Positions 8,620 through 24,205 of a DNA stretch of 64,000 nt are shown here, one piece after another. A model generated the notes under the pieces. That model had not been told where the DNA came from. It did not search any database and saw nothing but the letters and a program-made list of their open reading frames with translations. This stretch comes from Frankiales bacterium (GTDB lineage Bacteria > Actinomycetota > Actinomycetes > Mycobacteriales > SCTD01): contig JAOPVP010000043.1 of NCBI GenBank assembly GCA_025966135.1, positions 18,904 to 82,903 of the forward strand, written 5' to 3'. The position numbers and the translations under genes are program-made. How positions within the stretch are numbered: position 1 is the stretch's first letter; every line of letters starts with the position of its first letter.

Positions 8620-8732
8620 GCTTCTCTTCCTGTCGGCCGGCTCGCGTGACTGCCGGACTCGTCCGTGCAGGAGGGTTTCGCCCTTGCACACGGGGAGTCG
8701 CTGGCATGCGTATCTCCCCGACCAGAAGTACC

Positions 8733-8757
8733 TCGACGGCTGGCGAAAATTGCTGAA
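8733..8757 (-). promoter_or_regulatory. Copy 1 of shared bipartite upstream motif TTCAGCAA-N10-CCGTCGA (coding-strand orientation), 113 nt upstream of the lyase-like gene
   Basis: Plus strand reads TCGACGG-N10-TTGCTGAA; same words and identical spacing at 21551-21575 and 22994-23018. Confidence 0.4.
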
Positions 8758-8932
8758 GCGGAATGTCGGCATCGACGCGCCCATAGCGGGGCCGCCTCGC
8801 CTACCAGTCGGTGACCTGAAGGCAGGCGTCCGCACAAGCGAAGATTGTCCAGGATGCCAGGATTCCCATATTTGACAATGATGCTGCGGCCCGTTCCGCC
8901 CACCGTTGCGGCCGCGCCAGGTGTCGATACGG

Positions 8933-9670
8933 CTAGGACACCAGGTGCCGGCCTGCCTGACCTCGTTCCCGTGCGCGGTGTGGCGGATGGGCGATGCCGA
9001 CGCCTTCCCGGAGCGCGATGCTGACCGCCTCGAGGCTGGTGTGGACCTCCAGCTTGACGAGCAGGTGCTGGATGTGGGTGCGGACGGTGTTCACGGACAG
9101 GCACAGACACGTCGCGATCTCTGACCGCGGCATCCCCTCCGCCATCGCGGCCAGGACCTGCCGCTCGCGGAAGGTCAAGCTGTTGAGCCTCCCCATAGCG
9201 GCGCTCTCAGCCTCGCGGGAGAGCTGACGCACGACGTGGCCGAGCAGCGCTCGAGGCAGCCACCACTGCCCCGCGCCCACACCCGTCACCACGCGCGAGA
9301 GCCACTCCACCGAAGCGGTCTTCGGCACCCACCCCATCGCGCCGGCCTGGATGAGCACTGCCAGGTCCTCGATCGCCTCGGTCTCGGACATGACGACCAC
9401 CCCGATGCCCGGGTGCTCCCGCGCCACCTGTCGCAAGAAGCCGACCTGCCAGGTGCCGGGCTCAGCACCGACGATGAGGACCTTGGGGGTCTGTTGCTCG
9501 ATGACGTGCAAGGCCTCGAGGGCGCTCGACGCAGCGCGGGTAGATCCGATGGTCGGCTCGACCAACAACCGCAGCGCGAGCCCCTCTGCCATGGCTGGTT
9601 CGGGGTCGACCACCATGATTCCCAAGCGTTCGTGGTCAGGCTCCGGAGGTGGATCGGTACCTGCCCCCAT
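8933..9670 (-). CDS. LuxR/NarL-family response regulator with degenerate (pseudo-)receiver domain
   Basis: C-terminal LuxR HTH (FRERQVLAAMAEGMPRSEIATCLCLSVNTVRTHIQHLLVKL). Receiver-like N-terminus has VVDPEP and LIVGAEPG where the DD pair and phospho-Asp are expected. ATG 9670 overlaps the upstream stop (TGATG). Confidence 0.75.
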   Translation of the reverse strand: MGAGTDPPPEPDHERLGIMVVDPEPAMAEGLALRLLVEPTIGSTRAASSALEALHVIEQQTPKVLIVGAEPGTWQVGFLRQVAREHPGIGVVVMSETEAIEDLAVLIQAGAMGWVPKTASVEWLSRVVTGVGAGQWWLPRALLGHVVRQLSREAESAAMGRLNSLTFRERQVLAAMAEGMPRSEIATCLCLSVNTVRTHIQHLLVKLEVHTSLEAVSIALREGVGIAHPPHRARERGQAGRHLVS

Positions 9671-10323
9671 CAGGAGCACCTCGACGCGTCCGGCAGCACG
9701 AGTGAGTGCTGGGCTGCGTACGCGACGGCCTCCACCCGTGAGTGCACTCCCAACTTCTCCAGGACGGACTGGACGTAGCTCCGTGCTGTCGAGGTCGTGA
9801 TGTGCATCTCCTGGACGATGCTCTCCGTGGATCGTGCTTCGACCAGCAGGTCGAACGCCTGGCGCTCTCGGGCCGTCAGGAACCGCAGGTGCAGGCCATC
9901 GCCCACCCGTCGCGACACCCGATTGGGCGAGGTCGCCGCGGTGGGACTGGCGTCGGGAACCCACTGCGGGACGGAGGCGTGCACGGCTGCAACCAGGTCG
10001 GCCAGCGGGCCGGCGCGCACGACGATCTGGTCTGCGCCTGCCTCGATCGCCTGCCGTTCCAGCAGGTCGTCCCTGCTGGCGGTCAGGCAGACGATCCGGC
10101 ACTGCGGCTGATCCCGTCGCACGTGACAGATAGCGTCGAGGCCGGGGAGCGGCGTCGAGCGCAGGCTCATCACCAAGGTGGCGAGGCGCATTACCGAGGC
10201 GGCAAGAACTGCCTGTTCGGGCTGCGCCACCAGGTCCACCGCATCCGGGCTGTCCCGTTGGAGTGCGGCAGCCAGCGCCTCTGCGAAGAGGCGCTGCTCA
10301 TCACAGACCAGCGTGAACGTCAT
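9670..10323 (-). CDS. LuxR/NarL-family response regulator with degenerate (pseudo-)receiver domain
   Basis: LuxR HTH (LTARERQAFDLLVEARSTESIVQEMHITTSTARSYVQSVLEKL). Receiver has LVCDEQ and LVMSLRS (Ser at the phospho-Asp position) and Arg in place of the conserved Lys. The longer ORF to 11415 looks like an artifact. Confidence 0.75.
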   Translation of the reverse strand: MTFTLVCDEQRLFAEALAAALQRDSPDAVDLVAQPEQAVLAASVMRLATLVMSLRSTPLPGLDAICHVRRDQPQCRIVCLTASRDDLLERQAIEAGADQIVVRAGPLADLVAAVHASVPQWVPDASPTAATSPNRVSRRVGDGLHLRFLTARERQAFDLLVEARSTESIVQEMHITTSTARSYVQSVLEKLGVHSRVEAVAYAAQHSLVLPDASRCS

Positions 10324-10449
10324 GGTTTCCCCTGCCCGATCGGGTCCCGTTTCGTTGTGGTGAGCCGGGAGCCGCGGGCGTGATACATCCGCGCCGAACG
10401 GCGACGTAGTGCCTTTGCATGGTCCGGGGGGTCGTGGCTGGGTGCCATC

Positions 10450-11505
10450 GTGCAGCGGCTGAGGCAACACACGGAGGTGCGGATGGCGAGTGCGGACGGA
10501 TCCCGGGTATCGGTCATCATGCCTGTGCGACAGGAGGGTGCGGGTCTCCCGGACGTCCTCGCGGCCGTGACCTCGCAGGACTGCGTGCTCCTCGACCGGA
10601 TCGTCGTCGCCTTGGGTCCCAGCGAGGATGGCACCGCTGAGCTGGTCGACGAGTGGGCTCGGCGCGACGCCCGCGTGCTCGTCCTGCCCAATCCCGAGGG
10701 CATCGTCAGCACCGGCCTCAACCGGGCCGTTCAGGCAGTCAACAGCCGGTACGTCGTACGCATCGACGGGCACTGCCTGGTCCCGCGTGACTACGTCAGC
10801 TGCTTGCTGTCCTCGGCGGCGAGGACGGGAGCCGCGTGCGTCGGGCCACGGCTGCGCACCATCGGCGCCACCACTACCCAGCGGGCGATCGCTGCGGCCA
10901 TGAGCTCGGGCTTCGGGGTCGGTGGCTCGCGGTTCCGCACCAGCTCGCGGTCCGGCTACGTCGACACCGTGGCATTCGGGTTGTACGAACGAGACCGCCT
11001 GCTGCAACTGGGGGGCTTTCGCCCGGAGCTCGTCCGCAACCAGGACGACGAGCTCAACGCCCGGTTGCGGCGGGCAGGCGGCACGGTCTACCTCGACGCC
11101 GACGTCTGCGTGGACTACTACCCGCGTGGCTCCCTGCGCGGGCTCTGGAGGCAGTACTTCGAGTACGGCTACTGGCGCACGATCACTGCTCGCGCCTTCG
11201 GCGACCAGCTCAGGATCAGACAGCTGGTACCGGGACTGTTCGTCGTCGGTCTCACGGCCAGCATCGTGCTGGCAGCTCTCGGGCGGCCGTTGCTGCTGGC
11301 GGCGGGCCTGTCTGCCTACAGCCTGGTGCTCGGCCTGCTGATCCTGCAGACCGCACGGCGGACGTCGGACGTCCGGGTGGCCCTGCTGAGCGCGCCGGCA
11401 GCCGTGGTGCTCCACCTCTCCTACGGCTGCGGGCTGTGGCGTTCGCTGTTGCGTCCCAACGTCCTCCGACCTGGGCGGCTACGCGAAGAGCTGGCGAGCA
11501 CATGA
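10450..11505 (+). CDS. Glycosyltransferase family 2 (ExoA-like) with C-terminal membrane spans
   Basis: VSVIMPVRQE, RIDGHC and NQDDELN motifs; hydrophobic C-terminus; start could be ATG 10483. Confidence 0.85.
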   Translation: MQRLRQHTEVRMASADGSRVSVIMPVRQEGAGLPDVLAAVTSQDCVLLDRIVVALGPSEDGTAELVDEWARRDARVLVLPNPEGIVSTGLNRAVQAVNSRYVVRIDGHCLVPRDYVSCLLSSAARTGAACVGPRLRTIGATTTQRAIAAAMSSGFGVGGSRFRTSSRSGYVDTVAFGLYERDRLLQLGGFRPELVRNQDDELNARLRRAGGTVYLDADVCVDYYPRGSLRGLWRQYFEYGYWRTITARAFGDQLRIRQLVPGLFVVGLTASIVLAALGRPLLLAAGLSAYSLVLGLLILQTARRTSDVRVALLSAPAAVVLHLSYGCGLWRSLLRPNVLRPGRLREELAST

Positions 11506-12908
11506 GTATCGGGCTCTCGACCAACGGAGGAGGTACGCCGTCTCGTCTCTCCTCGCATCGCTCACGACTCGATTGGCTGGTGTTGCTCGTGCCGCTGATC
11601 GCCGTACCCGCTGTGTGTGTGGCGGTGCTGGTGTTGGCGGCTGCCCGGGAGCCGGTGGAGCAGCTGGCAATCGCGTTCTTGGCGGCTGCAGCCGTGGTGA
11701 TGCTGCTGGCCCCGCGCGGAGTGGTCTCTGCGCGGACCTGGGTGGTCGGGTATCTCGTCGTGCAGTTCCCGATCCGCGGCCTGTTCCTGCTCACCGCACC
11801 GAAGGAGCGACCGCCCATCTACGCCGAGTTCTCGCCGGGGGTGGGCCTGGAGGGCGCCCTCGGCCAGGCGCTCCTGCAGTCGCTCATCGGCCTGGGGGTG
11901 CTCACAGCGGCGTACCTGCTCGCGCTCCCGCGCGGCGTCGCCTCGAGGCCCGTCATCTCCGCGGCCGGCATCAGGACCTGGCGTGTGCTCGTCCTGCTGG
12001 GGGTGGCTGGGCTGCTCCTGCCCTTGGAGATCCACAGCGCCGGTGGCGGCTTCGCGGTCGGCGGCGGCTTCATGCTCAGTCTTCCTGGCTTGATGGCATC
12101 AGGTGCGGCAGCCGCGGTCTGCTATGCCTTCGTGCAGGCCCCTCGGCAGCACCTGATCACGCTCGTTCCGGCTCTGGCCTACACCGCGGCGCGCGTCAGC
12201 CTGCTGGGATCGAAGATGGCCGTCCTGGCGTGTGTGGTGGCGTTCGTGATCGGGCTGACGGGTCGGGCGCAGACCCGGCGTCCGGGGCGCTCACATGCCT
12301 TCGCTGGGCTGGCCGTCATCCTCGTAGGTGGGCTGGTCGGCACCTACATCTTCGCCCTGGCGAGCGGTGGGAACCGCAAGCAGGGGGTCGTCGACTCGGT
12401 GTCAGGGGGCGTGTCGGCGGCCATTTCCCGCAGCTACGGCGTCGACGCCCTGATGGCGTCGAACGCGCATCTCGAGGCGGGTGCGGCGCAGCTGCACGGC
12501 AGCACGTTCGTCGAGCTCGCCTACTCCTGGGTGCCGCGCGCCCTGTGGCCCGAGAAGCCGAAGTCGTTCTCCATCCGGTTCGGGGAGGACGTGTTCTCGT
12601 TCTCGCCGAGTGCGGGGAAGGAGTTCTTCGCACCGAGCTATTCGGGGGAGTGGGTGCTCAACTTCGGCACGATCGGGCTCCTGGTCGGCTGGATGCTGTT
12701 CGGGCTGGCTCTTGGCCGAGTCGATGCGATTCCGTCCCTGGCGCACCGGACCCTCTGGCTGGTCTCCATGGTCCACCTCGTGGAGGGCTCCTTAGTGGCG
12801 CAGTTCTGGCTGGCCGCCCCCTTCGTTGCGGGCGGCTACTGGGTTCTGCGGCGACAGCAACGCGCAAGCGGTCCCGTGCCCGCGCGCCATGTGCCCCGGG
12901 TGAACTGA
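11502..12908 (+). CDS. Polytopic membrane protein, oligosaccharide repeat-unit polymerase (Wzy)-like
   Basis: ATGA overlap with the GT2 stop; about 468 aa, more than 10 hydrophobic spans, no soluble domain. The 5-prime part of ORF 10836-12908 overlaps the GT2 gene and is discarded. Confidence 0.65.
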   Translation: MSIGLSTNGGGTPSRLSSHRSRLDWLVLLVPLIAVPAVCVAVLVLAAAREPVEQLAIAFLAAAAVVMLLAPRGVVSARTWVVGYLVVQFPIRGLFLLTAPKERPPIYAEFSPGVGLEGALGQALLQSLIGLGVLTAAYLLALPRGVASRPVISAAGIRTWRVLVLLGVAGLLLPLEIHSAGGGFAVGGGFMLSLPGLMASGAAAAVCYAFVQAPRQHLITLVPALAYTAARVSLLGSKMAVLACVVAFVIGLTGRAQTRRPGRSHAFAGLAVILVGGLVGTYIFALASGGNRKQGVVDSVSGGVSAAISRSYGVDALMASNAHLEAGAAQLHGSTFVELAYSWVPRALWPEKPKSFSIRFGEDVFSFSPSAGKEFFAPSYSGEWVLNFGTIGLLVGWMLFGLALGRVDAIPSLAHRTLWLVSMVHLVEGSLVAQFWLAAPFVAGGYWVLRRQQRASGPVPARHVPRVN

Positions 12909-12921
12909 CCCCAGAGCGTGC

Positions 12922-14187
12922 TCACAGGGCCTCGACGTTGTCGCCCTTCATGCGGTTGCGGGTGTCGAAGACGTACCGCGCATGGGCAGTGATGAGGTCG
13001 TAGTCGAAGCAGTCGTGATCGGTCACCAGGATCACGGCGTGTGCCGCACGAACCTCGTCGGCGGTCAGCTCCACGCGGGTCACGCCGTCCGAGACCTGCT
13101 GCTCGCGGACGTGCGGGTCGCAGGCGTGGACCTCGGCCCCGAGGCTGAGCAGGCGTTCGGCGATGACGGCGCCAGGCGCCTGGCGGGCGTCCCCGGTGTT
13201 GCGCTTGTAGGACAGCCCCAGCAACAGCACCCGGGCCCCGTTGAGCGCAGTGCGCCGCCTGTTCAAGCCCAGCATCACTCGGCGCACGACATGATCCGGC
13301 ATGTGGTCGTTGACGTCGTTCGCCAACTCCACGAACCGGAAGCTCTGGCCCAACGTACGCCGGACGCTCCACGACAGGTAGCACGGGTCGATCGGGAGGC
13401 AGTGCCCGCCGACCCCCGGTCCGGGGGTGAACGGCATGTACCCGAACGGCTTGGTCGAGGCCGCATCGATGGCTGCCCACACGTCGATCCCGAGATCGGC
13501 TGCGAACATCGCGAGCTCGTTCACCAGGGCGATGTTCACATGGCGGAAGGTGTTCTCGATGAGCTTGGCGAGCTCCGCCTCACGTGGGGAGGGGACCGCG
13601 ACGGTGCGGCAGACCAGGAGGTCGTAGAACTGACGCACCTGCTCGAGCGAGTGGTGGTCGACGCCGGAGATGATCTTCGGGGTGTTCTCGAGCCGCCACG
13701 TGGGATTACCAGGATCGATGCGCTCGGGGCTGTAACCGAGCGAGAAGTCCAGACCGGGGCGGAGCCCGCTACCTGCCTGAAGGATCGGTCCGACGACCTC
13801 CTCGGTCGTGCCCGGGTAGCTGGTGGACTCGAGTACGACGAGGGCGCCCGGTCGAAGGTGCCGGGACAGCGTCTCGGCGGCGGCCTCGACGTACGACAGG
13901 TCTGGCGCCCCATCCGCGAGCGGCGTGGGGACCGTCACCACGGCGACGTCGAACCCGGCGCACACGTCCGGGCTGGTCGAGGCTCTCAGGCGGCCGGTCG
14001 CGAGGCAGGAGTCGAGCAGCTCATCGCTGATGTCCTCGATGTAGGAGTGACCTGCGCACAGCGCGTCCACGCGCGCACCGGAGACGTCGTAACCCGCGAC
14101 CCGCCGGCCGGTCTGCACCGCGCGGACCGCAAGGGGAAGCCCGACGTAGCCGAGACCGACCACCACCACCTTGTCCTGTGTGCTCAT
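12922..14187 (-). CDS. Nucleotide-sugar 6-dehydrogenase (UDP-GlcNAc/UDP-ManNAc dehydrogenase type; WbpA/TviB/WecC family)
   Basis: VVVVGLGYVGLPLA Rossmann motif and GPGVGGHCLPIDP catalytic-Cys motif; ATGA overlap with the upstream PAP2 gene. Confidence 0.9.
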   Translation of the reverse strand: MSTQDKVVVVGLGYVGLPLAVRAVQTGRRVAGYDVSGARVDALCAGHSYIEDISDELLDSCLATGRLRASTSPDVCAGFDVAVVTVPTPLADGAPDLSYVEAAAETLSRHLRPGALVVLESTSYPGTTEEVVGPILQAGSGLRPGLDFSLGYSPERIDPGNPTWRLENTPKIISGVDHHSLEQVRQFYDLLVCRTVAVPSPREAELAKLIENTFRHVNIALVNELAMFAADLGIDVWAAIDAASTKPFGYMPFTPGPGVGGHCLPIDPCYLSWSVRRTLGQSFRFVELANDVNDHMPDHVVRRVMLGLNRRRTALNGARVLLLGLSYKRNTGDARQAPGAVIAERLLSLGAEVHACDPHVREQQVSDGVTRVELTADEVRAAHAVILVTDHDCFDYDLITAHARYVFDTRNRMKGDNVEAL

Positions 14188-14789
14188 GGCGACTGCGCCC
14201 TCTCGGTTCGGCGGCTGGGAGTGGTCCAGACGAGCAGCAGCAGCAGGCCCAACATCCACCCGGCGACGACATCGGTCAGCCAGTGCTGGTGGAGGAGCAG
14301 GATGGCCGCGCTCTCGACCGCTGAGACGGAGCCGCCCAGCACGAGAGCCTTGCCACGACCACCGGGGCTGCCGTCCGGTGCCACGGCCCACAGCGCCATG
14401 CCCGACACCACGAGCACGGAGATGACGTGCCCCGACGGGTAGGCACCCTGCCCGGGCTCGAGCTCCCCAGGCATGGTGTACGAGCCCGTCCGGTCGAGCG
14501 CCAGCTTCAGCACCCGGACCAGAACCGCGCTCGCCAGGCAGCCGCCCACGAGGCGCACGAGGTGGCCCAGCGGGCGTGCCAGCAGCACGCACAGCACCCC
14601 GGCGACCGATGCGGTGAAGACCATGACGTCGGCGTCACCGGCCCGCACGAGGGCGAGGAGCACCCGGTCTGGCACTCGCCAGTCGTGAGCAGCGATGAGC
14701 CTGCGGAAGGGCTCGTCCACGAGACGGTCCGCCAGGCCGGTGACGACCGCGGCCGTGACCACGACCATTCCGGCGGCCAGCAGCAGCAT
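14184..14789 (-). CDS. PAP2-family membrane phosphatase
   Basis: KLALDRTG, PSGH and HQHWLTDV correspond to the three PAP2 motifs; membrane spans; start uncertain (ATG 14789 chosen). Confidence 0.7.
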   Translation of the reverse strand: MLLLAAGMVVVTAAVVTGLADRLVDEPFRRLIAAHDWRVPDRVLLALVRAGDADVMVFTASVAGVLCVLLARPLGHLVRLVGGCLASAVLVRVLKLALDRTGSYTMPGELEPGQGAYPSGHVISVLVVSGMALWAVAPDGSPGGRGKALVLGGSVSAVESAAILLLHQHWLTDVVAGWMLGLLLLLVWTTPSRRTERAQSP

Positions 14790-14844
14790 GGCCAGCCTGG
14801 TGATCGAGCGCGCGGCCGCACGTGCTCGGTAGCTCGACGGTGGC

Positions 14845-15885
14845 TCACGCAAGGTCCGGCCACCGCCAATCGGGCCGGTCCCCTGCAGCCAGAGCGCGCA
14901 CCCGTCGCTGCCACGCGGAGAGTGCGAAGCCGGCGGCGAACCGTGCTGCAGCCTGACGTGCGTGATCCGTCGAGGTAAGCGCTGCGACTGCCTCTGCGAT
15001 GTCCTGTGTGCTCGCCTCGGGGGGAAGCACGATGCCGCTGCGTCCGTCTGCGACGCCGTAGCGGCTGCCGCCACAGTCGACCACGACAGCTGGGCAGCCA
15101 CGCGCCGCAGCCTCGAGCACCACCAGCCCGAGGCCTTCGTACTCGCCGGCTTCGGCGCGTGGAAGGAACAGCAGGGCATCGGCATCGGCGTACAGCTGAT
15201 CCTTGACGAGGTCCGTGACGGTGCCGTGGACGTGGATGGTGAGACCCGTGCAGGACGCGGCGGCGGCGAGCTCTTCCAGCCGCGAGATGTCTGGTCCTGG
15301 CCCGACCACGTCGAGTCGGACGGCCGCAGAGTCGGCCAGGAGGCGCGCCACCTCGATGGCACGGTCGTGACCCTTGCGGGCTACCGCCCTGCCGACCGAG
15401 AGCAACCGGAGGCCGCCGCTCCCTGGTGCCCGAGGATCGCGGCCATAGGCATGGGCGGCCGCATGGTCGGCAGCGGGCACGGGCGGGCCGACGAGCTGCA
15501 CGCGTTCCCGCAAGTGGGGCGGGAGCAGCTGCAGGGCCAGCGGGCTCACTGCGAGCAGCTGGTCTGTACCGTTCAGGACCCGGGAGCGCAGATACGTGTG
15601 GACGCGGCCGCTGTCACGTGTCAGCTCGGCACCGTGGAGCCAGAGCAGACCACGGTCGAGCACGCCTGGGTGCCGGAGCATGGCCGCGGCTTCGGTCTTC
15701 CACGTGAGGGCCATCCACCGTCCGCGGGGCCGCGCGGAACCCGCGATGCCGTGCAGCCCGACGTGCAGACGTGAGCAGCCGTCTCCGTCGGACAGGGCGG
15801 TGTACACCTGTCGTGCGACCATCTCGACGCCCCCGATCGACGCCGACGGCGTGAACACCGGGATGGGCGGCGAGCTACTGCTCAT
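14845..15885 (-). CDS. Glycosyltransferase family 4 (GT-B fold)
   Basis: EYEGLGLVVLEAAARGCPAVV C-terminal GT1/GT4 motif. Confidence 0.8.
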   Translation of the reverse strand: MSSSSPPIPVFTPSASIGGVEMVARQVYTALSDGDGCSRLHVGLHGIAGSARPRGRWMALTWKTEAAAMLRHPGVLDRGLLWLHGAELTRDSGRVHTYLRSRVLNGTDQLLAVSPLALQLLPPHLRERVQLVGPPVPAADHAAAHAYGRDPRAPGSGGLRLLSVGRAVARKGHDRAIEVARLLADSAAVRLDVVGPGPDISRLEELAAAASCTGLTIHVHGTVTDLVKDQLYADADALLFLPRAEAGEYEGLGLVVLEAAARGCPAVVVDCGGSRYGVADGRSGIVLPPEASTQDIAEAVAALTSTDHARQAAARFAAGFALSAWQRRVRALAAGDRPDWRWPDLA

Positions 15886-15898
15886 GCGAACGGGCTGG

Positions 15899-16714
15899 TC
15901 ATTCGTGGACGCGCTTCCTGACGGCCATCAGCGGCCAGGCCGGGCTCAGCCCGTTCCGTCGTACGGCGAAGGGCGAGTCACCGGGTGACATCCGACCCGG
16001 CAGTGCGCTGGCGCAGCTGCGGTAACCCGCCTCCATCACCACCTGCAGGTCGCGATCGGTGTAGTCGACGTCGGGCAGTCCGAAGGGGGCCGAGAAGTCC
16101 AGGACCGGCACGCCGAGTCGGCCTTCGAGCTCGTCCTTGGAGTCGAGTACCTCTCGCCGGGCCGCGCCGGCGCTGAGCAGAGCCAACCTGGCGTGCGTGA
16201 TGGTGTGGGACCCGATGTGCATGCCGGCCTCCAGCAAGCACGTGCAGTCGCGCCACGTGATCTGCTCCTGGCTTTCCCCGGTGACGACCTTGTTCGTGGT
16301 GATGAAGAACGTCGCAGGCACCTTCAGCTCGGCCAGCAGTGGTAGGACGGTGCTCGTCCACTCCTTGTGCCCGTCGTCGAACGACAGGCAGAACCGCGGA
16401 CCCGACAGCGGCACGTCGGAGGCGAGTGCGGACAGACCCTGTTCCCAGGTCAGGAAGTCACCACGGGCCTGCATGGCTGTCAGCTGCTTGCGGAGGCCGT
16501 TCGCGTGATTGTCCGGAACGCCGTGATAGAGCAGGAAGTAGACACCACCGACTGCGTGGGGGAGGCGGCGGGTGAGGCCAAGCGGAGCCAGGACGTACCC
16601 CTGCAACCGTGGTCGGGCTCGCAGCCAGGCTCGGGGACGGGGGAGCACGCCGCCTGCCATAAACGCGCTGGGGCCGTGCCAGTCGTGATCAGCGCTCTCA
16701 GATGCGGTGGACAT
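15899..16714 (-). CDS. Polysaccharide deacetylase (NodB homology domain)
   Basis: LSFDDGHKEW, ATFFITT and GSHTITH motifs. ATG 16714 chosen; the upstream extension to 17056 is Arg/Cys-rich junk. Confidence 0.85.
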   Translation of the reverse strand: MSTASESADHDWHGPSAFMAGGVLPRPRAWLRARPRLQGYVLAPLGLTRRLPHAVGGVYFLLYHGVPDNHANGLRKQLTAMQARGDFLTWEQGLSALASDVPLSGPRFCLSFDDGHKEWTSTVLPLLAELKVPATFFITTNKVVTGESQEQITWRDCTCLLEAGMHIGSHTITHARLALLSAGAARREVLDSKDELEGRLGVPVLDFSAPFGLPDVDYTDRDLQVVMEAGYRSCASALPGRMSPGDSPFAVRRNGLSPAWPLMAVRKRVHE

Positions 16715-16976
16715 GCGCTGGGTTCGTCCTTGTCTCGCTGGCCTGTCCCGCCGACAGGCTGGGCAATCGTCGCCTCGAGGTATCAGGAACGGATCCCCAA
16801 CGCGACGTAGTGCTACGGCCGCGTGCCTGCATGGCGCAGGGGATCGCCTACCTGGCAGCAGGTTGCGGTTTTGGCGGAGGATGTATTTCGGTGACACGGC
16901 TCCCCCTCTCCTCGGGGAAGGAAGCCGTTGGTCGAGCGTCTGGGGCGCTCGGCGGCACCGTCGTACGAGGAGTGAC

Positions 16977-17672
16977 ATGGCGTCAGGGGACGGGGCCCGC
17001 ATCTTGCAGAGGCACACGCTGGTCGTGCTGGCGTGCATCGCTGCAGGAGCCATCACGGCGCTGGTGGTCTCCTCCCAGACGTCACGGACCTACCAGTCCG
17101 AGGCCCAGGTCTTCGTCTCAGCGGGACACACTGCCAACGCCGGCGGCGCGCTCGACCGCGCCCGCTTTGCGCAGGAGCGCATCAAGTCCTACATCCCGCT
17201 CGTCACCAATCCAGCGGTGATGACCGCGGTGGCCAAGGACCTGAAGCTGCGCACGGCACCCGACCGCCTCGCGGAGCAGATCACGGCGAGCTCGCCCCCC
17301 GACACCGTCCTACTGCGGATCATCGCGCGGGATGGCAGTGCGAAGACGGCCCAGAGCCTCGCCAACGCCACCGCGACGCAGTTCTCGAGATACGCCGTCG
17401 CTCTGGAGGGCACGGACGCGGGAGCACCGGCCGTCGAGCTGAGGATCACCAAGCTTGCGGACCAGAGCGGTTCACCGGTGTCCCCGCGGCCGTTGTACAA
17501 CCTCGCGCTGGGGCTCCTCATCGGGGCCGCAGCGGGACTGGCTGTCGCCTCGTTGCGTCAGCGTTGGAGCCCCCTGCCGCGGACCCGTGAGGGGTTCGAG
17601 GAGACGAGCTGGGCACCGCCCACGTTCGTCAGCGCGCCGGAGCCACGTCGTGCGGTGCGCCCGCACCGCTGA
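16977..17672 (+). CDS. Polysaccharide chain-length determinant (Wzz/PCP-type) protein without kinase domain
   Basis: N-terminal TM (LVVLACIAAGAITALVV), then SQTSRTYQSEAQVFVS...PLVTNPAVMTAVAKDLKL, then a C-terminal TM (LALGLLIGAAAGLAVA). Confidence 0.7.
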   Translation: MASGDGARILQRHTLVVLACIAAGAITALVVSSQTSRTYQSEAQVFVSAGHTANAGGALDRARFAQERIKSYIPLVTNPAVMTAVAKDLKLRTAPDRLAEQITASSPPDTVLLRIIARDGSAKTAQSLANATATQFSRYAVALEGTDAGAPAVELRITKLADQSGSPVSPRPLYNLALGLLIGAAAGLAVASLRQRWSPLPRTREGFEETSWAPPTFVSAPEPRRAVRPHR

Positions 17673-17703
17673 GGCCCCACGTCCTTACGAGACTGGAGGT
17701 CGC

Positions 17704-18714
17704 ATGGCCCAGAGCGTTGGCCGAGTGCTCATCGTCGGCCCGTCGAGGGTGGGCGACATGGCCTGGTTCCTGGCCCTTGCCTACCGGCGGCTGCGGTGGC
17801 AGGTCGTGCAGTTCGACGACCGCGCTTTCGTGGGCAGGCGTCTGCCGGGCGTGGCCGGGACGGCGTTGCAGGTCCTGGAACGGGACCACCGCCTGACGGA
17901 CCGGACGCGGCGGCTCGGTCAACTCGTTCTGGCGAGAGCTGGGGACTGCGACCACGTGGTCACGGTCAAGGGTGAGTACTTCCTCCCGGAGGACGTGGCG
18001 GCCATCTCCTCGCGCGTGCCATTCCTCAACTGGCACCCCGACCACCCGGTCCTCGACCAGAGCTTTGCCTGCATCCCGCACTACACGTCCTTCTGCCCCA
18101 AGGACTCCTGGAGCACGCAGCGCCTGCGCAACATGGGTCACCTCAACGTGACGACGCTGCCGCACGCCTCGGACCCGACGCTGCTCGGTGGTCCGCAGCA
18201 GGAGGCAGCCGGGCCCTCGATGTCCGTCGTGGGCGGCATGTACCCCTACCGTCGGCACTGGATCGACCAGGCCAGGGGGCTCGGCCTGAACGTGCGCATC
18301 TGGGGGAACGACGGTGGGGCAGGCGATCCCGCGGTGATCGCCCGCAAGCGACAGGCGCTCGGTGTCGAGCAGGGCCGTGCCTTGCGGGCCGGCTGCTTCA
18401 CCCTGAACACGCACCACCCGCATGATGTCGCCGGTGGCAACCAGCGCCTGTTCGACGCCGCCGCGGCCTGCGCGCCGCAGCTCACCGAGCGCCTGCCCGA
18501 GTCGGTCAGGCACTTCAAGCCCGACACCGAGATCGCGACGTTCGAGGACCGCGATCAGTTCCTGAGCCAGGTGAGGGAGCTGGTTGCGAACCGACGTCTG
18601 CGCGAGAGTCTCGGACGCAACAGCCACGAACGAGTGCGCGAAGAGCACACCTACGAGCACCGGGTGCAGACCATCCTGACGCTGCTGGGACATCCGCTGG
18701 AGACCGCGTGCTGA
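17704..18714 (+). CDS. CgeB-like glycosyltransferase family protein
   Basis: C-terminal pattern NQRLFDAAAACAP.L......V..F.P..EIATFED..QF...V..L..N..LRE.LG.N..ERV..EHTYEHR typical of the CgeB/Glyco_trans_1_2 family. Confidence 0.6.
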   Translation: MAQSVGRVLIVGPSRVGDMAWFLALAYRRLRWQVVQFDDRAFVGRRLPGVAGTALQVLERDHRLTDRTRRLGQLVLARAGDCDHVVTVKGEYFLPEDVAAISSRVPFLNWHPDHPVLDQSFACIPHYTSFCPKDSWSTQRLRNMGHLNVTTLPHASDPTLLGGPQQEAAGPSMSVVGGMYPYRRHWIDQARGLGLNVRIWGNDGGAGDPAVIARKRQALGVEQGRALRAGCFTLNTHHPHDVAGGNQRLFDAAAACAPQLTERLPESVRHFKPDTEIATFEDRDQFLSQVRELVANRRLRESLGRNSHERVREEHTYEHRVQTILTLLGHPLETAC

Positions 18715-19742
18715 AGCTGGAACGACTTGCCTTCGAGGACGTCGACTGGGCGCGGCTCGACGCGCTCGAGGACCGGGTGCTGTTTCAGACGAGCGCCTGG
18801 CTCTCCTTCGTCGCGGAGACCCAAGGAGCAGAGCCTGTGGTCGCCGTTCTCCGGGAGGGTGGCGACGATCGCGGTTGGTTCACCGGGCTGGTGTGCCAGC
18901 GGTTCGGGGTGCGGGTCCTCGGTGCCCCCATGCCGGGGTGGAGCACGCAGTACCTGGGCTGCAACCTGCTTCCTGGCACGCCGCGCCGAGAAGCGCTTCA
19001 GGCTCTGGTCCCCTTCGCGTTCGGGGAGCTCCGGTGCAGTCATCTCGAGGTCTGCGACCGATGGGCCTCGGTGCCGGACCTGTCGGGCCTCGGTGGGCAG
19101 CACGACGACGTGCCGACGTTCGTGGTCGACCTGAGACCGAGTGAGGGGGAGATCCGCGCGCGCATGACCAGCGGGACTCGGCAGAACCTGCGCAAGGCGG
19201 TGCGCGGCGAGCTGGTGGTCGAGGACGCGGCGCCCGAGGGCTTTGCTGCGGAGTACTACGCCCAGCTGCAGGACGTCTTCGCCAAGCAACGGCTCGTCCC
19301 CACCTATCCGCTCCGGAGGGTGGAGAAGCTCATCGAGCACCTCCACCCGACGGGAAGGCTTCAGCTCATTCGGGTTCGTGCTCCGAACGGCAGGTCCATC
19401 GCCACCGCACTGGTCGCGGGCCTTGGCCAGACCGCGTACTTCTGGGGCGGCGCGAGCTGGCGCTCGCAGCAGCAGCTGCGTCCCAACGAGCTGTTGTTCT
19501 GGCATGCCTTCAGCACCTGGAAGAGTCGCGGCGCGCTGGAGTTCGACTTCGGCGGGGGCGGCGACTACAAGCGCAAGTACGGCGCCAGCGCCTTGTCCGT
19601 GCCCCACGCACGGGTGTCGAAGTGGCGGGTGCTGGCCCATCTGCGGGACGCAGCGAAGCGCTCGGTAGCTGTCCGGCAGCAGGCCGTGGGCGCGCTCCAC
19701 GGCACGTCGGCCAAGCGGGGGAGCAGCACAACGCCGGCGTGA
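18708..19742 (+). CDS. FemAB-like / Acetyltransf_6 (BioF2-like GNAT) acyl- or aminoacyl-transferase
   Basis: FQTSAWLSFV...YFWGGASWRSQQQLRPNELLFWHAFSTWKSRGALEFDFGGGGDYKRKYGA. GTG start overlaps the upstream stop. Confidence 0.7.
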   Translation: MLKLERLAFEDVDWARLDALEDRVLFQTSAWLSFVAETQGAEPVVAVLREGGDDRGWFTGLVCQRFGVRVLGAPMPGWSTQYLGCNLLPGTPRREALQALVPFAFGELRCSHLEVCDRWASVPDLSGLGGQHDDVPTFVVDLRPSEGEIRARMTSGTRQNLRKAVRGELVVEDAAPEGFAAEYYAQLQDVFAKQRLVPTYPLRRVEKLIEHLHPTGRLQLIRVRAPNGRSIATALVAGLGQTAYFWGGASWRSQQQLRPNELLFWHAFSTWKSRGALEFDFGGGGDYKRKYGASALSVPHARVSKWRVLAHLRDAAKRSVAVRQQAVGALHGTSAKRGSSTTPA

Positions 19743-19760
19743 CCTGAGGTCACGCCGGCG
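19732..19760. terminator. Perfect 12-bp hairpin between convergent genes (candidate bidirectional terminator)
   Basis: CGCCGGCGTGAC-ctgag-GTCACGCCGGCG; no T tract. Confidence 0.5.
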
Positions 19761-19799
19761 CTGTGGTCATGCATCAGCGGTTGTGGTGGTGCTGCTCTG

Positions 19800-21509
19800 C
19801 TAGTGGCCGCCCTCGTAGGCGCCGATGTCCACGGCCGGGCCCTGGGGTCGTGCGGCCAGGTCCATGTCGTAGGTCGGAGCGCCCTGGCTCGTGCCCTTGT
19901 TGATGGCCGGGCTGGCGGCGCGAAGGTGGTAGTCGCCACCGGTGCTCGCCTGGTAGTTGACGAACTGCGGGTCCCCGGTGATGGTGCCCGTCGGCGTGGA
20001 GCCACCGATGAGGCTGTAGCCGCCACTGGCGTTGCCGTTGAGCAGGTTGTCCGCGTAGGTGTTCTGGCCGGCGCGACCCATCTCCCGGATGCCGTAGTAC
20101 CCGTTGTTGACGACGATGTTGTTGGTCACGACGTTGTTGCTGGCGATGCCGGGGGCGATGTCGTTGCCCTCGAGCGAGCCGCCGATGACCATGCCGCCCT
20201 GCTTGTTCTCGAACACCGTGTTGTTGGAGATGGTGATCGTGTTGGCGTTGTGCCAGAGGTGAATGCCCCACCCGCTGGTCTGGTAGACGATGTTGTCCAG
20301 GATGCGGCCGCCGTTGGGGCCTTGGTAGTAGATGCCGTGGATGAGACCGCAGCCGCTCGTCGGCGCGAGGATGTCATTGACGACGTTGCCGATCGAGTCG
20401 TTGTTGTGCTCGGAGTAGTTCTGCAGCTCGATACCGGCACCGCCACGGCTGCAGCCCGGCGGGACCATGTGGTGGATGTGGTTGCCGAGGAACTTGCCGT
20501 TCGAGGCGGTCGACATGATCCCGCTGTACTGGGAGTCGGCGATGTCGAAGTTCTCGATGACGATCCAGTCACCGGTGTTGGTCCAGGCATTGGTGCTGCC
20601 CGGTGCACTGATCTTCGCGCCCCACTTGCTGCTGGACAGGAAGATGATCGGCGCGCTGGACGTGCCGCTGTTGCTGGAGGTGACAGCGCCGTAGGTCCCT
20701 GGGGCAACGTGGACGACGGTGCCCGCGCTGGCGACACTCGCGGCCTTCTGCACCTGCCGGAACGGCTGGCTGCTGGTGCCCGGGTTGCTGTCGCTACCTG
20801 TCGGCGAGACGTACAGCGCATGGGATCCCGTGGTGGGCCAGGGGTTTGTCGGCGTGCTGGTCGGCGCGGTGCTCGCCGTCGGTGCTGTGGTCGGGCTGGT
20901 GGTGGGCTTGGTAGTGGTTGCAGCGGTGGGACTGGAGGTCGGGGTGGCGGACGGCGCCGGTGCCGGGGTGCTCGTGGCCTGGACCTCGATGCCGTCGATC
21001 TTGGCGTTGTTCACCGCGGCACTGAAGCCCACATCGACCTTCGAGTCGGTGGTCCGGACCGGCACGCTGACGTCGTAGGCAGTCGTCGCCCCGATCGTCT
21101 TGACGAGGTCCAGGTTCGCCACGACTGTCTGTCCCTCCGCCGTGACCGAGAACACACGCTGGCCAGGCCTGTTGGCCCAGTTCTCGGTGAAGTGCAGCTT
21201 GAGGTCGTAGATGCCCGGGGCCGGTACCGGGATGGTGTACCCGCTCATGCCGTACCGCTCGTCCTGGTAGGCGGTCTGGTCGGTGGTGTTGGCGACCGTC
21301 CGGTGGTTCGTGGCCGCGGTGCCACCGACGAAGTAGCGATCGGCGAGCCACTGCTTGCCTTGGGAGTCGGTGAAGCCGGGACCGCCCGAGTTGATGCGGA
21401 CGCTCCATGGCCCGCTCGTGGCGGCCGAGGCGGACGCGGTGTGTAGCGCTGCTGCCGCTGGCACCAAGGCCAACGGCAGCAGAGCGAGTGCAGTCTTCTT
21501 GAGACGCAT
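19800..21509 (-). CDS. Secreted malectin-domain + Thr/Pro linker + right-handed parallel beta-helix protein (paralog 1)
   Basis: Signal peptide MRLKKTALALLPLALVPAAAALHTASASA. Malectin-like INSGG...QWLADRYF...LHFTENW...RVFSV. TP-rich linker. Beta-helix repeats (NNTVFENKQGGMVIGG, VTNNIVVNNG). C-terminus DIGAYEGGH. Confidence 0.85.
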   Translation of the reverse strand: MRLKKTALALLPLALVPAAAALHTASASAATSGPWSVRINSGGPGFTDSQGKQWLADRYFVGGTAATNHRTVANTTDQTAYQDERYGMSGYTIPVPAPGIYDLKLHFTENWANRPGQRVFSVTAEGQTVVANLDLVKTIGATTAYDVSVPVRTTDSKVDVGFSAAVNNAKIDGIEVQATSTPAPAPSATPTSSPTAATTTKPTTSPTTAPTASTAPTSTPTNPWPTTGSHALYVSPTGSDSNPGTSSQPFRQVQKAASVASAGTVVHVAPGTYGAVTSSNSGTSSAPIIFLSSSKWGAKISAPGSTNAWTNTGDWIVIENFDIADSQYSGIMSTASNGKFLGNHIHHMVPPGCSRGGAGIELQNYSEHNNDSIGNVVNDILAPTSGCGLIHGIYYQGPNGGRILDNIVYQTSGWGIHLWHNANTITISNNTVFENKQGGMVIGGSLEGNDIAPGIASNNVVTNNIVVNNGYYGIREMGRAGQNTYADNLLNGNASGGYSLIGGSTPTGTITGDPQFVNYQASTGGDYHLRAASPAINKGTSQGAPTYDMDLAARPQGPAVDIGAYEGGH

Positions 21510-21550
21510 ACGAGAGAACTCCTGAGTTATCGGGGGCTACCTCCCGTGTT

Positions 21551-21575
21551 TCGACGGTCACGCAAAGTTGCTGAA
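21551..21575 (-). promoter_or_regulatory. Copy 2 of bipartite motif TTCAGCAA-N10-CCGTCGA, 41 nt upstream of the paralog 1 start
   Basis: Plus strand TCGACGG-tcacgcaaag-TTGCTGAA. Confidence 0.4.
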
Positions 21576-21649
21576 CCGATGTGTACCGAGTTTCTGTCAC
21601 TCCATGTAGCCCCAAGATCACCAACAGTGGTCGATCTCAGAGTGCACAC

Positions 21650-21681
21650 CGGCGGCGTGACCCTGTGAGGCCACGCCGCCG
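21650..21681 (-). terminator. 10-bp GC hairpin downstream of beta-helix paralog 2, sequence-related to the hairpin at 19732-19760
   Basis: CGGCGGCGTG-(12 nt)-CACGCCGCCG. Confidence 0.4.
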
Positions 21682-21697
21682 CTGAGGTGCTGTCCGT

Positions 21698-21780
21698 GTT
21701 GCGACATCGCTCGTTGCGACGTTGCAGGTTGCGACCGTGCTGAATGCGACCGTGCTGACGGCATTCGTGCCGGTTGCGAC
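21698..21780. repeat. 15-bp tandem repeat, six units, core octamer GTTGCGAC
   Basis: GTTGCGAC at 21698, 21713, 21728 and 21773. AATGCGAC at 21743; degenerate unit at 21758. Exact 15-nt phasing; abuts the stop of paralog 2. Confidence 0.8.
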
Positions 21781-22950
21781 TCAGTGGCCGCCCTCGAAGG
21801 CGCCGATGTCCATGGCTCCGGCCTGGGGCCGAGGCGCCAGCATGAGGTCGTAGCGGGGTGCACGTAGCGTGGTTCCCCTGTTGACTGCCGGACTGGTGCG
21901 GCGCAGGCGGTAGTCACCACCGCCGGCGGCCCGGTAGTTCACGAACTGCGGGTTCTTGGCGATGGTGCCCGTGGGCCGGCCTCCGCCGATCAGGCTGTAG
22001 CTGCCGTTCGAGTTGCCGTAGACCAGGTTGTTCGCGTAGGTGTTCTTGCCGGCGCGACCCATCTCCCGGATGCCGTAACGCCCGTTGTAGACGGCGATGT
22101 TGTTGGTCACGACGACGCCTCGCACGATGCCAGGGGCGATGTCGTTGCCCTCGAGCGAGCCGCCGATGACCATGCCGCCCTGCTTGTTCTGGAAGACCGT
22201 GTTGTTGGAGATGGTGATGTTGTTGGCGTTATGCCACAGATGGATCCCCCACCCGCTGGTCTGGTAGACCAGGTTGTTCAGGATCCGACCGGCGTTCGGG
22301 CTCTGGTAGTAGATGCCGTGGATGCGGGCGCAGTCACCGGGCGCCATGATGTTGTGGATCACGTTGCCGATGCTGTCGTTGTTGTGGGCCGAGTAGTTCT
22401 CGGCCACGATGCCGGCGCCACCCCTGTCGCAGGTCGGAGCGGCGAGGTGGTGGATGTGGTTGCCGAGGAACTTGCCGTTGGAGCTCGTGGTCATGATGCC
22501 GTTGTAGTCGGCGCCCGTGATGTTGAACTTCTCGATCACGACCCACTCGCCGGTGTTCGTCCAGGCGCTCGTGTTGTGGGGCGCGCTGATAGTGGCCCGC
22601 CACTTGCTGTCGGACAGGAAGATGATCGGTGCCCTGGAGGTTCCGTTCCTGGTCGACGTGACGGGACCGTACGTGCCCGGGCGGACGTGCACGATGGTGC
22701 CCGCGGCGGCGACGCTGGCGGCCTTGTTGACCTGCCGGAAAGGCCGGGCCTGGGTGCCCGGGTTGCCGTCGCTCCCGGTGGGGGAGACGAAGAGCTGTCG
22801 CTTTCCGGTGGTGGGCCAGGGGTGCGTCGTGGCGGTGGTGACGCTGGCCGAGAGGCTGGTAGCCGAGGCTGTGGAGCCGGTAGGCAGGACTGCGGTAGCT
22901 GCCAGTAGCGTCAAGGGCAACGCCGCAAGGGCTGTCTTGGTGAGGTGCAT
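21781..22950 (-). CDS. Secreted right-handed parallel beta-helix protein (paralog 2)
   Basis: Signal peptide MHLTKTALAALPLTLLAATAVLP; about 70% identical by eye to the beta-helix part of 19800-21509; ends MDIGAFEGGH. Confidence 0.85.
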   Translation of the reverse strand: MHLTKTALAALPLTLLAATAVLPTGSTASATSLSASVTTATTHPWPTTGKRQLFVSPTGSDGNPGTQARPFRQVNKAASVAAAGTIVHVRPGTYGPVTSTRNGTSRAPIIFLSDSKWRATISAPHNTSAWTNTGEWVVIEKFNITGADYNGIMTTSSNGKFLGNHIHHLAAPTCDRGGAGIVAENYSAHNNDSIGNVIHNIMAPGDCARIHGIYYQSPNAGRILNNLVYQTSGWGIHLWHNANNITISNNTVFQNKQGGMVIGGSLEGNDIAPGIVRGVVVTNNIAVYNGRYGIREMGRAGKNTYANNLVYGNSNGSYSLIGGGRPTGTIAKNPQFVNYRAAGGGDYRLRRTSPAVNRGTTLRAPRYDLMLAPRPQAGAMDIGAFEGGH

Positions 22951-22993
22951 GCGAGGAGGTCTCCTGCGTGTTCGGGGGTACCTCCTTTCGTTG

Positions 22994-23018
22994 TCGACGA
23001 CCTCGCGTCATTGCTGAA
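22994..23018 (-). promoter_or_regulatory. Copy 3 of bipartite motif TTCAGCAA-N10-TCGTCGA, 43 nt upstream of the paralog 2 start
   Basis: Plus strand TCGACGA-cctcgcgtca-TTGCTGAA. Confidence 0.4.
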
Positions 23019-23080
23019 ACGATGTGCACACGCTCGGAGCTGGGCGCACCCTCGAGCGCGGCCGAGCAGCCTCGCTGGGG

Positions 23081-24205
23081 TCAGTGACCGCCCTCATAGG
23101 CGCCGATGTCCACGGCAGGACCTTGTGGCCGAGGGGCCTCGAGAAGGTCGTAACCGGGTGCCCCCAACGTGGTCCCCGCGTCGAGTGCCGGACTGGTGGA
23201 GCGCAGCCGGAAGTCGCCGCCATCAGACTGGTAGTCCACGAACTGCGGGTTCTGTGTGATGGTGCCCGAACGCGCGGCCCCGCGCCTGAGGCGGTAGCCG
23301 CCCTTGCTGTTGCCGTAGACCAGGTTGTCCGCGTAGGTGTTGTGGCCGACGCGACCGCTCTCACCGATGCCGTAGTGCCCGTTGTAGGCCGCGATGTTGT
23401 TGGTCACGAGGATGTTGCTGGCGAGGCCTGGGGCAACGTCGTTGCCCTCCATCGACCCGCCGATGAGCATGCCGCCCTGCCGGTTCTGGACGAGGGTGTT
23501 GTTGGAGATGGTGATGTTGCTCGCGTTGTGCCACAGGTGGATGCCCCACCCGCTGGTCTGGTAGATCACGTTGTTCAGGATCCGACCGGCGTTCGGGCTC
23601 TGGTAGTAGATGCCGTGGATGCGGGCGCAGTCACCAGGCGCGAGGATGTTGTGGATCACGTTGCCGATGGCGTCGTTGTTCTGAGACGTGTAGCTCTCGG
23701 CCACGATGCCGGCGCCACCGCGCGAGCAGGTCGGAGCGGCCAGGTGGTGGATGTTGTTGCCCAGGAAGGTGCCGTTGGAGCTCGTGGTCACGATGCCGTT
23801 GTAGTCGGCCCGCGTGATCGAGAACTCCTGGATCACGACCCACTGGCCGGAGTTGCTCCACGCGCTCGTGTGCCCAGGCGCGCTGATGATCGCCTGCCAC
23901 CTGCTGTCGGATCGGAAGGTGATCGGCGCGCTGGACGTACCGCTTCGGCTGGAGGTCACCGGGCCATACGTGCCAGGAGCGACGTGTACGACGGTGCCGG
24001 CGCCGGCGACCTGGGCGGCCTTGTTGACCTGCCGGAAGGGTCGGCTGCGGGTGCCTGGGTTGCTGTCGCTCCCCGACGGGGCGACGAACAGCTGCCGTGT
24101 TCCCGTGGTGGCGGTCCCTGGGCCTCCTGTCTTCGAGGGCAGTGTCAAGACCGCGGCCAAGATCACCAGTGGCAACGCGGCAAGGGCTGTCTTGGTGAGG
24201 TGCAT
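23081..24205 (-). CDS. Secreted right-handed parallel beta-helix protein (paralog 3)
   Basis: MHLTKTALAALPLVILAAVLTLPS signal peptide (ATG 24205); same architecture; ends VDIGAYEGGH. Confidence 0.85.
   Translation of the reverse strand: MHLTKTALAALPLVILAAVLTLPSKTGGPGTATTGTRQLFVAPSGSDSNPGTRSRPFRQVNKAAQVAGAGTVVHVAPGTYGPVTSSRSGTSSAPITFRSDSRWQAIISAPGHTSAWSNSGQWVVIQEFSITRADYNGIVTTSSNGTFLGNNIHHLAAPTCSRGGAGIVAESYTSQNNDAIGNVIHNILAPGDCARIHGIYYQSPNAGRILNNVIYQTSGWGIHLWHNASNITISNNTLVQNRQGGMLIGGSMEGNDVAPGLASNILVTNNIAAYNGHYGIGESGRVGHNTYADNLVYGNSKGGYRLRRGAARSGTITQNPQFVDYQSDGGDFRLRSTSPALDAGTTLGAPGYDLLEAPRPQGPAVDIGAYEGGH

Follow-up and report, generated by a model that had tools for sequence, protein, structure and literature searches.

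A conserved two-box, promoter-like element upstream of secreted glycan-enzyme genes in an uncultured Frankiales bacterium

What signal controls the secreted glycan enzymes encoded within a bacterial exopolysaccharide gene cluster? The question is raised by contig JAOPVP010000043.1 of a 'Frankiales bacterium' metagenome-assembled genome (MAG), of which we analyzed a stretch of 64 kb with ~69% G+C (the window). Positions 1 to ~27,000 of the window form a Wzx/Wzy-type exopolysaccharide cluster. The bipartite motif TTCAGCAA-N10-YCGTCGA is present in three exact copies in the window, all on the minus strand, compared to 0.00 expected from dinucleotide-preserving shuffles, and each copy precedes a gene for a secreted protein. 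An initial annotation of this DNA had proposed a regulatory motif tied to related secreted enzyme genes. Our analysis supports a non-random, conserved cis-element, which is very probably a dedicated promoter or activator element that co-regulates these enzymes.

The first copy (W1; 8733..8757, minus strand) reads TTCAGCAA ttttcgccagc CGTCGA, scores 40 bits with the weight matrix described below, and lies 113 nt 5' of the ATG of a gene (7162..8619, minus strand) encoding a secreted polysaccharide lyase (PF14099) of 485 aa with two Fn3 domains. The start of this gene agrees with the public annotation (P0121; 100% identity and coverage). The second copy (W2; 21551..21575, minus strand; TTCAGCAA ctttgcgtgac CGTCGA; 46 bits) is located 41 nt 5' of a gene (19800..21509, minus strand) for a secreted malectin and right-handed beta-helix protein of 569 aa. 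The third (W3; 22994..23018, minus strand; TTCAGCAA tgacgcgaggt CGTCGA; 36 bits) is located 43 nt 5' of a gene (21781..22950, minus strand) for a second beta-helix paralogue, a secreted right-handed beta-helix protein of 389 aa (Pel9A-like/DUF1565). A signal-peptide-like N-terminus could be recognized on each of the three proteins by reading the sequence. The three copies, their common 10-nt spacing, and the 113, 41 and 43 nt that separate the motif end from the ATG all agree with the initial annotation. It had also described the lyase gene as not homologous to the beta-helix genes, and the proteins indeed fall into different Pfam families (PF14099 versus PF13229/PF22842/PF07602, the latter with or without a malectin domain).

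The octamer TTCAGCAA alone is found five times in the window, where 0.35 copies are expected. The two copies that are not part of the motif, at 563-570 (minus strand) and 60163-60170 (plus strand), are both located within coding sequence and have no partner word, in agreement with the earlier description of isolated octamers near these positions. An extra word of the form ACAT(T)C(C)G, previously noted just 5' of the motif, is present at all three sites as gACATTCCGc, cACATCGg and cACATCGt, and in relatives only (C)ATC-n-CGG of this word is retained. A weight matrix of 33 columns was built from eight sites, which score 31-46 bits. When the window and ten related loci (~155 kb) were scanned with it, no further match of 12 bits or more was found. 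A literature search with the octamer returned unrelated matches only, and the sequence is not described in the literature that was searched.

Is the element conserved beyond this genome? Related contigs were chosen as encoding close homologues of the beta-helix proteins, and six of them carry seven further sites 5' of beta-helix orthologues, for a total of ten sites on seven contigs. A contig from a Mycobacteriales MAG (L001) has two sites, the first TTCAGCAA-N11-CGTCGA and the second TTCAGCAA-N11-CGACGA. The others are found in a Frankiales MAG (L002; TACAGCAC-N11-GGTCGA), a farmland metagenome (L012; TTCAGCAA-N10-CGACGA), four contigs of one population (L014-L017; TACAGCAA-N11-CGTCGA), the Frankiales MAG RYN_111 (L109; TTCAGCAA-N11-CGTCGA), and the sequencing-run assembly SRR30681656 from Logan (L141; TTCAGCAA-N11-CGACGA). 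The consensus is cGG-T(T/A)CAGCA(A/C)-N11-CG(T/A)CGA, in which we refer to the upstream block as box A and to the downstream block as box B. Box B reads CG(T/A)CGA at all sites except one, L002, which has GGTCGA. The gap between TTCAGCAA and CGWCGA is 11 nt in all sites other than L012, where it is 10 nt, and is thus strict, not absolute.

Conservation is concentrated in the two boxes. In an ungapped comparison of nine sites, from which L012 was left out with its 10-nt spacer, mean pairwise identity is 0.92 for box A and 0.90 for box B, and falls to 0.25-0.48 outside the boxes (20 nt upstream, the 11-nt spacer, and 25 nt downstream). Compared with all other sites, the lyase site has identities of 0.95 and 0.94 in the boxes and 0.16-0.42 elsewhere. 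Because identity is confined to the two boxes, the lyase site is not a copied beta-helix flank, and the earlier statement that the motif is not just duplicated flanking DNA holds for it. Judged from these alignments, the conservation of the boxes is a clear phylogenetic footprint. In L014-L017 the motif-bearing beta-helix gene is located outside any polysaccharide cluster, which argues that the motif follows the gene and not the cluster.

Some related genes lack the motif. A third beta-helix paralogue in the window (23081..24205, minus strand; annotated 374 aa) comes directly after the Wzx flippase gene, with which it is presumably co-transcribed. Its leader is homologous to those of the other paralogues (AGGTAC...AGGAG...ATGCACCTCACC) but does not carry the motif, which makes this paralogue an internal negative control. 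The motif is also missing from lyase homologues of other taxa, which belong to more distant clusters (L003-L006), and from a 48%-identical beta-helix gene in L013, and a search of metagenome contigs with paralogue 2 yielded only relatives of 32-38% identity, again without the motif. The pattern CGNTTCAGCAA-N11-CGTCGA matches at least 119 stretches across genome contigs. Among the matches listed, 117 are chance matches, mostly in apparent coding DNA of unrelated phyla and in many cases the reverse complement of ...LLK...-type codons, while the real sites are L027 (on the same contig as L001) and L109. The element is lineage-restricted, and its occurrences to date are in a small number of uncultured Frankiales/Mycobacteriales MAGs and in soil metagenome contigs.

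The position of the motif relative to the gene suggests what it does. In all nine beta-helix genes, 40-43 nt separate the end of box B from the ATG, and between the two there is a conserved AGGAG, 22-28 nt past box B and 8-12 nt short of the ATG. If this ribosome-binding site is used, then transcription starts between box B and AGGAG. CGWCGA is the sole block common to all ten sites where a -10 element could lie, which would assign box B to positions of about -13 to -8 and TTCAGCAA to about -32 to -25, with weaker CGG and (C)ATC words stretching the conservation to about -40. We infer both this -10/-35 assignment and the start site from sequence. The alternative offered by the initial annotation, that GTCGA(C/A) is a weak -35, does not fit, as a -10 located 17 nt downstream would put the start inside or after AGGAG.

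No sigma-70-type promoter was detected in the regions 21400-23300 or 8400-9100, and no TANNNT, as expected for the housekeeping sigma-70/sigma-A, is conserved between box B and AGGAG. Rfam gave no match at gathering score in the whole window and none at E <= 1 in the three motif regions. A 14-bp GC-rich hairpin (21651..21680, minus strand; region z = -4.3) is located between the stop codon of paralogue 2 and W2, and the second L001 site has an equivalent strong GC hairpin ahead of it; z is about -4 in either region. Since these hairpins resemble terminators, W2 and the second L001 site appear to head their own transcription units. Based on its fixed position, the preceding hairpins, and the absence of both a sigma-70-type promoter and a known RNA family from the regions searched, the element is best read as a dedicated promoter. 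It behaves like an alternative-sigma or class-II-activated promoter.

Several other promoter assignments were considered and rejected. A sigma-54 promoter on the opposite strand would have 12 nt rather than 10 nt between GG and GC and the wrong orientation; to our knowledge, Actinobacteria have no sigma-54. In W2, a WhiG/FliA-type promoter (CGAAA-N14-CCCGATAA) can be drawn, but its TAAA-like part is not conserved across sites, and a SigB/SigF-type GGGTAC occurs at variable distance from the boxes. Taking CGWCGA as a -35 with GATAMC as a -10 would make the start fall inside or after the ribosome-binding site. TAGCCC/TACCCC as a -10 does not end in T and is missing from four sites. Finally, no periodic repeat of the kind expected for a PHO-box or for SARP direct repeats is present. 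Activator sites of the SARP type, which are heptamer direct repeats at the -35 region, nevertheless show some similarity: the element too lies across this region in a promoter with no -35 consensus, and the TCGA core of box B resembles the heptamer TCGAGXX. However, there is no 11-bp direct-repeat periodicity and no SARP gene in the cluster, and boxes A and B are unlike each other, with just 2-3 bases in common and unconserved bases between them, which differs from the direct repeats bound by SARP/OmpR-type proteins.

Which protein reads the boxes? Neither box resembles a housekeeping promoter, and therefore a dedicated factor must do so. The sole regulators in the cluster are encoded just upstream of the lyase gene by RR1 (8933..9670, minus strand), a candidate reader of the motif, and RR2 (9670..10323, minus strand), whose stop codon overlaps the RR1 start. 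Both are NarL/GerE-family regulators with a pseudo-receiver domain. When the two are aligned to NarL and VraR, the position of the phospho-acceptor Asp holds Gly in RR1 (nine of nine orthologues) and Ser in RR2 (four of four orthologues), and these replacements suggest that the two proteins are atypical and phosphorylation-independent. The acidic DD pair of the receiver domains is also altered in all orthologues examined. RR1 has few relatives, with just 30 proteins at E <= 1e-10. The initial annotation had pointed to the adjacent LuxR-type regulators as candidates. They are real NarL/GerE proteins that are conserved in the cluster, but with the acceptor Asp missing they are not typical LuxR or two-component regulators.

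The pair is conserved at the same cluster position, divergent from a GT2 gene, in three related loci (L137, L139 and L140). In these loci the cluster stops at the pair, and the genes beyond it (hyp/NiFe hydrogenase genes or uvrB) are unrelated. These relatives have no lyase gene, and the lyase gene with its motif promoter thus looks like a lineage-specific addition beside the regulators. RR2 and the divergent GT2 gene have a common upstream region, and it carries conserved blocks of its own in four loci: cTGCAA-nn-GCACTACGTCG, followed 15-16 nt later by GTATCA (window 10381-10419, minus strand; L137 ~8005-8050; L139 ~3290-3330; L140 ~9300-9345). GCAA and CGTCG words are present in this region as well, at a spacing of 7-8 nt instead of 11 nt, and the region does not match the weight matrix.

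We propose, with confidence that stays somewhat short of even, that the three sites could be core promoters of a co-regulated set of exopolysaccharide enzymes at which the RR1/RR2 pair occupies box A and an extracytoplasmic function (ECF)-like sigma factor occupies CGWCGA. In this model, box B (CG[T/A]CGA) would take the -10 position, transcription would start ~5-9 nt past box B, at the purine block with which the leader begins, and box A (cGG-T[T/A]CAGCAA-yTT) would cover roughly -35 to -22. RR1 and RR2, without phosphorylation and possibly as a heterodimer in the manner of BldM-WhiI, would bind box A, replace -35 recognition, and recruit RNA polymerase. Its sigma factor, probably alternative and ECF-like, would recognize CGWCGA. 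Expression of the lyase would then go together with that of the beta-helix enzymes and apart from the biosynthetic operons of the cluster. The single step in which the pair reads box A is, from the sequences at hand, a tentative assignment that we would put at rather less than an even chance.

Two known systems are similar to parts of this model. BldM and WhiI are atypical NarL-type regulators of Streptomyces venezuelae that bind a non-palindromic site as a heterodimer (PMC4125116). Like them, RR1 and RR2 are a pair of atypical actinobacterial NarL-family proteins (BldM and WhiI being orphan NarL/FixJ-type response regulators) with no need for phosphorylation, and the proposed target is non-palindromic. 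In contrast, the BldM-WhiI site is one contiguous 16-bp element (TGnnCCGnnCGGGTGA) to which only the heterodimer binds, whereas the element described here is bipartite and spans 25 bp with an unconserved 11-nt gap between its two boxes. The sequences are unrelated, and bldM and whiI are unlinked while the RR1 and RR2 genes are adjacent and overlap. Box A with its flanks (~14-16 bp) could be a BldM-WhiI-type site by itself. The second system is the VpsT/CsgD type of LuxR-family biofilm matrix regulator, which likewise has a GerE helix-turn-helix together with a receiver-like domain that works independently of phosphorylation, and which controls extracellular polysaccharide functions; VpsT is among the weak PDB matches of RR1 (3kln, E = 1.5e-5). 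However, these regulators are proteobacterial, have other binding sites, and are homologous at the family level only, and we see no evidence of c-di-GMP binding by RR1 or RR2.

Two observations on the RR1 recognition helix bear on how the regulator and box A are linked. The helix is unchanged in the population that was sampled together with the L015 site (L138 and L015 come from the same sample). In MAG GCA_046723735.1 the helix differs (THAQNVLAKL versus THIQHLLVKL), and this MAG has a variant motif at L013 9935-9964, ATCACGG-GTCGCGGG-N9-GGTCGA, in which GTCGCGGG replaces TTCAGCAA and the spacer is 9 nt. This variant did not recur in L140. A single case, L013 hints that regulator and box A co-vary.

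A number of features weigh against a role for the regulator pair. Known GerE/NarL dimer sites are compact, span 16-20 bp and are usually symmetric, whereas the element consists of two unlike boxes with centers ~18 bp apart. No dyad of the kind expected for a NarL/LuxR (GerE) dimer is present across the ten aligned sites; by inspection, GCAA-n-TTGC is found only in W2 and L012. Unlike boxes with fixed spacing and at fixed distance from the gene are a classic signature of a sigma factor and not of an activator, and the CGTC-type -10 points to an ECF sigma, which normally reads its own -35 without an activator. The weight matrix found no motif 5' of the regulator genes or the biosynthetic operons, which is atypical for a cluster regulator, though possible. 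Moreover, only in this window are the motif and the pair on one contig, and related contigs have one or the other. A tblastn search detected no RR1 or RR2 on the contigs with beta-helix sites, which end too early.

The foremost alternative is that the element is simply the promoter of an alternative sigma factor. A sigma factor of the ECF type (or of group 3/4), with its gene elsewhere in the genome, would read both boxes, with GGTTC(AGCAA) as -35, CG(T/A)C as -10, and a 16-bp spacer, and the regulator pair would be uninvolved. We regard this as a possible but doubtful explanation. CGTC/CGAC is the usual form of an ECF -10, which box B resembles in nine of ten sites, and the position of box B would be compatible with a -10 relative to the predicted start site. 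The dissimilar boxes, their near-invariant spacing, the constant distance to the ATG, and the absence of a TANNNT element speak for such a promoter, as does the presence of the motif at a gene outside the cluster (L014), which is as expected for a genome-wide regulon. The initial annotation had considered the spacing too short for a -35/-10 pair. This is correct when the distance is counted between the two words, but not when it is counted as GGTTC-N16-CGWC. ECF sigmas require a rigid spacer of 16-17 bp, the canonical AAC-to-CGT distance (PMC6411747, PMC6767563), and the match of GGTTC-N16-CGWC to this geometry makes a sigma-factor promoter a serious rival.

The details of the upstream box, in contrast, fit an ECF promoter poorly. 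GGTTC, the pentamer at the right distance, has no AAC, and its GG is weakly conserved (information content 0.5-1.1 bits). The best-conserved sequence, TTCAGCAA, is located 3-5 nt downstream of the position of an ECF -35 pentamer. If GCAAy-TTT is instead taken as the -35, then the spacer is just 10-11 bp, which is excluded by the rigid ECF spacing. In addition, the upstream box of ~14 nt exceeds a sigma region-4 contact, and there is no sigma or anti-sigma gene in the window or any related locus. Characterized ECF promoters (S. coelicolor sigma-E, M. tuberculosis sigma-H, and B. subtilis sigma-M/W/X) have in common with the element two short dissimilar boxes with rigid spacing, a CGTC-type box at the putative -10, an upstream box in which a T-run comes after GCAAC/T, and a role in the control of cell-envelope or extracellular functions. 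However, the GCAAy-to-CGWC distance here is 10-11 bp rather than 16-17 bp, the geometry fits only with the non-canonical GGTTC as -35, and no sigma/anti-sigma pair is encoded nearby.

A different possibility is that a repressor or some unrelated transcription factor, encoded elsewhere, uses the element as its operator and, positioned over the promoter, keeps the enzymes off until a glycan signal is present. The motif overlaps the inferred core promoter, as such an operator might, and secreted glycan-degrading enzymes are commonly under substrate-responsive repressors. However, repressor operators of the LacI, GntR, ROK and TetR families are typically palindromic, and by inspection neither dyad nor direct-repeat symmetry is conserved across the ten sites. 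There is also no separate recognizable promoter beneath the element. We consider this explanation unlikely.

A variant of the proposed RR1/RR2 mechanism should be mentioned here. The heterodimer itself might act as a promoter-specificity module for a bipartite promoter that could not be read otherwise, with one subunit on TTCAGCAA over the -35 and the other on CGWCGA, lending sigma-region-4-like recognition. RR1 scores just above the Pfam cut-off for Sigma70_r4_2 (26.4 versus 25.7 bits). This idea is a long shot; if true, the enzymes that remodel or disperse exopolysaccharide would have a switch of their own, made up of the two regulators.

Could the boxes instead belong to a structured 5' RNA (a riboswitch, an attenuator or a thermometer) whose promoter lies further upstream? 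The leaders do have features that invite this question. The nine beta-helix leaders (window, L001, L002, L012, L014, L109 and L141) share a common layout, in which GGAGG is found 5-7 nt past box B and is followed by a C-rich block, then by AGGAG, and then by CCUCC/CCCCC directly ahead of the AUG. The leader of the malectin/beta-helix gene (21510..21550, minus strand) has GGGAGG 5 nt after the box, a C-rich block, AGGAG, CTCTC and ATG, and that of paralogue 2 (22951..22993, minus strand; z = -3.2) reads AGGAGG ... CCCCC ... AGGAG ... CCTCCT ... ATG. Minimum-energy folding pairs the 5' purine block with the block ahead of the AUG in seven of the nine leaders, so that the ribosome-binding site is enclosed or paired, although the folds beat shuffled sequences in just three of nine (z = -3.2, -3.2 and -2.1). 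The lyase leader (8620..8732, minus strand) is 113 nt long and has three predicted hairpins, including a perfect GGGGAG-N16-CTCCCC at 8692-8719. No hairpin followed by a U-run and no Rfam match was found in it, and its sequence is unrelated to those of the beta-helix leaders.

The boxes themselves, however, are complementary neither to each other nor to any conserved partner. Rfam is empty even at E = 1, the lyase and beta-helix leaders are unrelated outside the boxes, terminator-like hairpins lie directly 5' of two sites, and few of the leader folds are significant. An RNA element that includes the boxes is very improbable. The beta-helix leader on its own may be a translational control leader or merely G/C-rich sequence of low complexity. 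Least probable of all is a non-functional remnant of a duplicated flank or a small dispersed repeat: W2 and W3 do precede paralogous genes with homologous leaders, but the spacer and flanks have diverged while the boxes have not, the non-homologous lyase gene has the motif too, orientation and position relative to the gene are the same for all copies, and the third paralogue keeps its leader without the motif.

If the element acts as proposed, it defines a small regulon in an uncultured soil group of Frankiales/Mycobacteriales, in which one switch would serve a polysaccharide lyase and several beta-helix glycan enzymes separately from the genes that build the polymer. It would also offer a testable link between a conserved phosphorylation-independent regulator pair, or an ECF sigma, and remodelling of the exopolysaccharide matrix. 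The 25-bp signature is specific and can be used to find further members in metagenomes. No general principle of bacterial transcription is changed by it. The signal is of a familiar kind with a new, lineage-restricted sequence.

Other features of the window are summarized here. Besides the lyase, the beta-helix proteins, and the regulators, the cluster encodes a Wzy_C protein, a Wzx-like flippase, several glycosyltransferases, an asparagine synthase, an epimerase, a UDP-glucose dehydrogenase, a polysaccharide deacetylase and an acetyltransferase. The window contains no sigma-factor or tRNA gene. Four long open reading frames with high GC3, all on the plus strand, have no Pfam match at E <= 1e-4: 59518-62169 (883 aa), 47663-48676 (337 aa), 11573-13003 (476 aa) and 33804-34898 (364 aa). 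The 476-aa frame has syntenic counterparts in related clusters, likewise without Pfam matches.

Lastly, all four GTCGCAAC octamers of the window are found within 83 nt (21698-21780, minus strand), between the paralogue 2 stop codon and the terminator-like hairpin. Three of them recur at intervals of exactly 15 nt, accompanied by the variants GTCGCATT and GTCAGCAC, and Tandem Repeats Finder reports a period of 15. This stretch could be a repeat array in the 3' untranslated region or an array of protein-binding sites ~120-230 nt 5' of W2.

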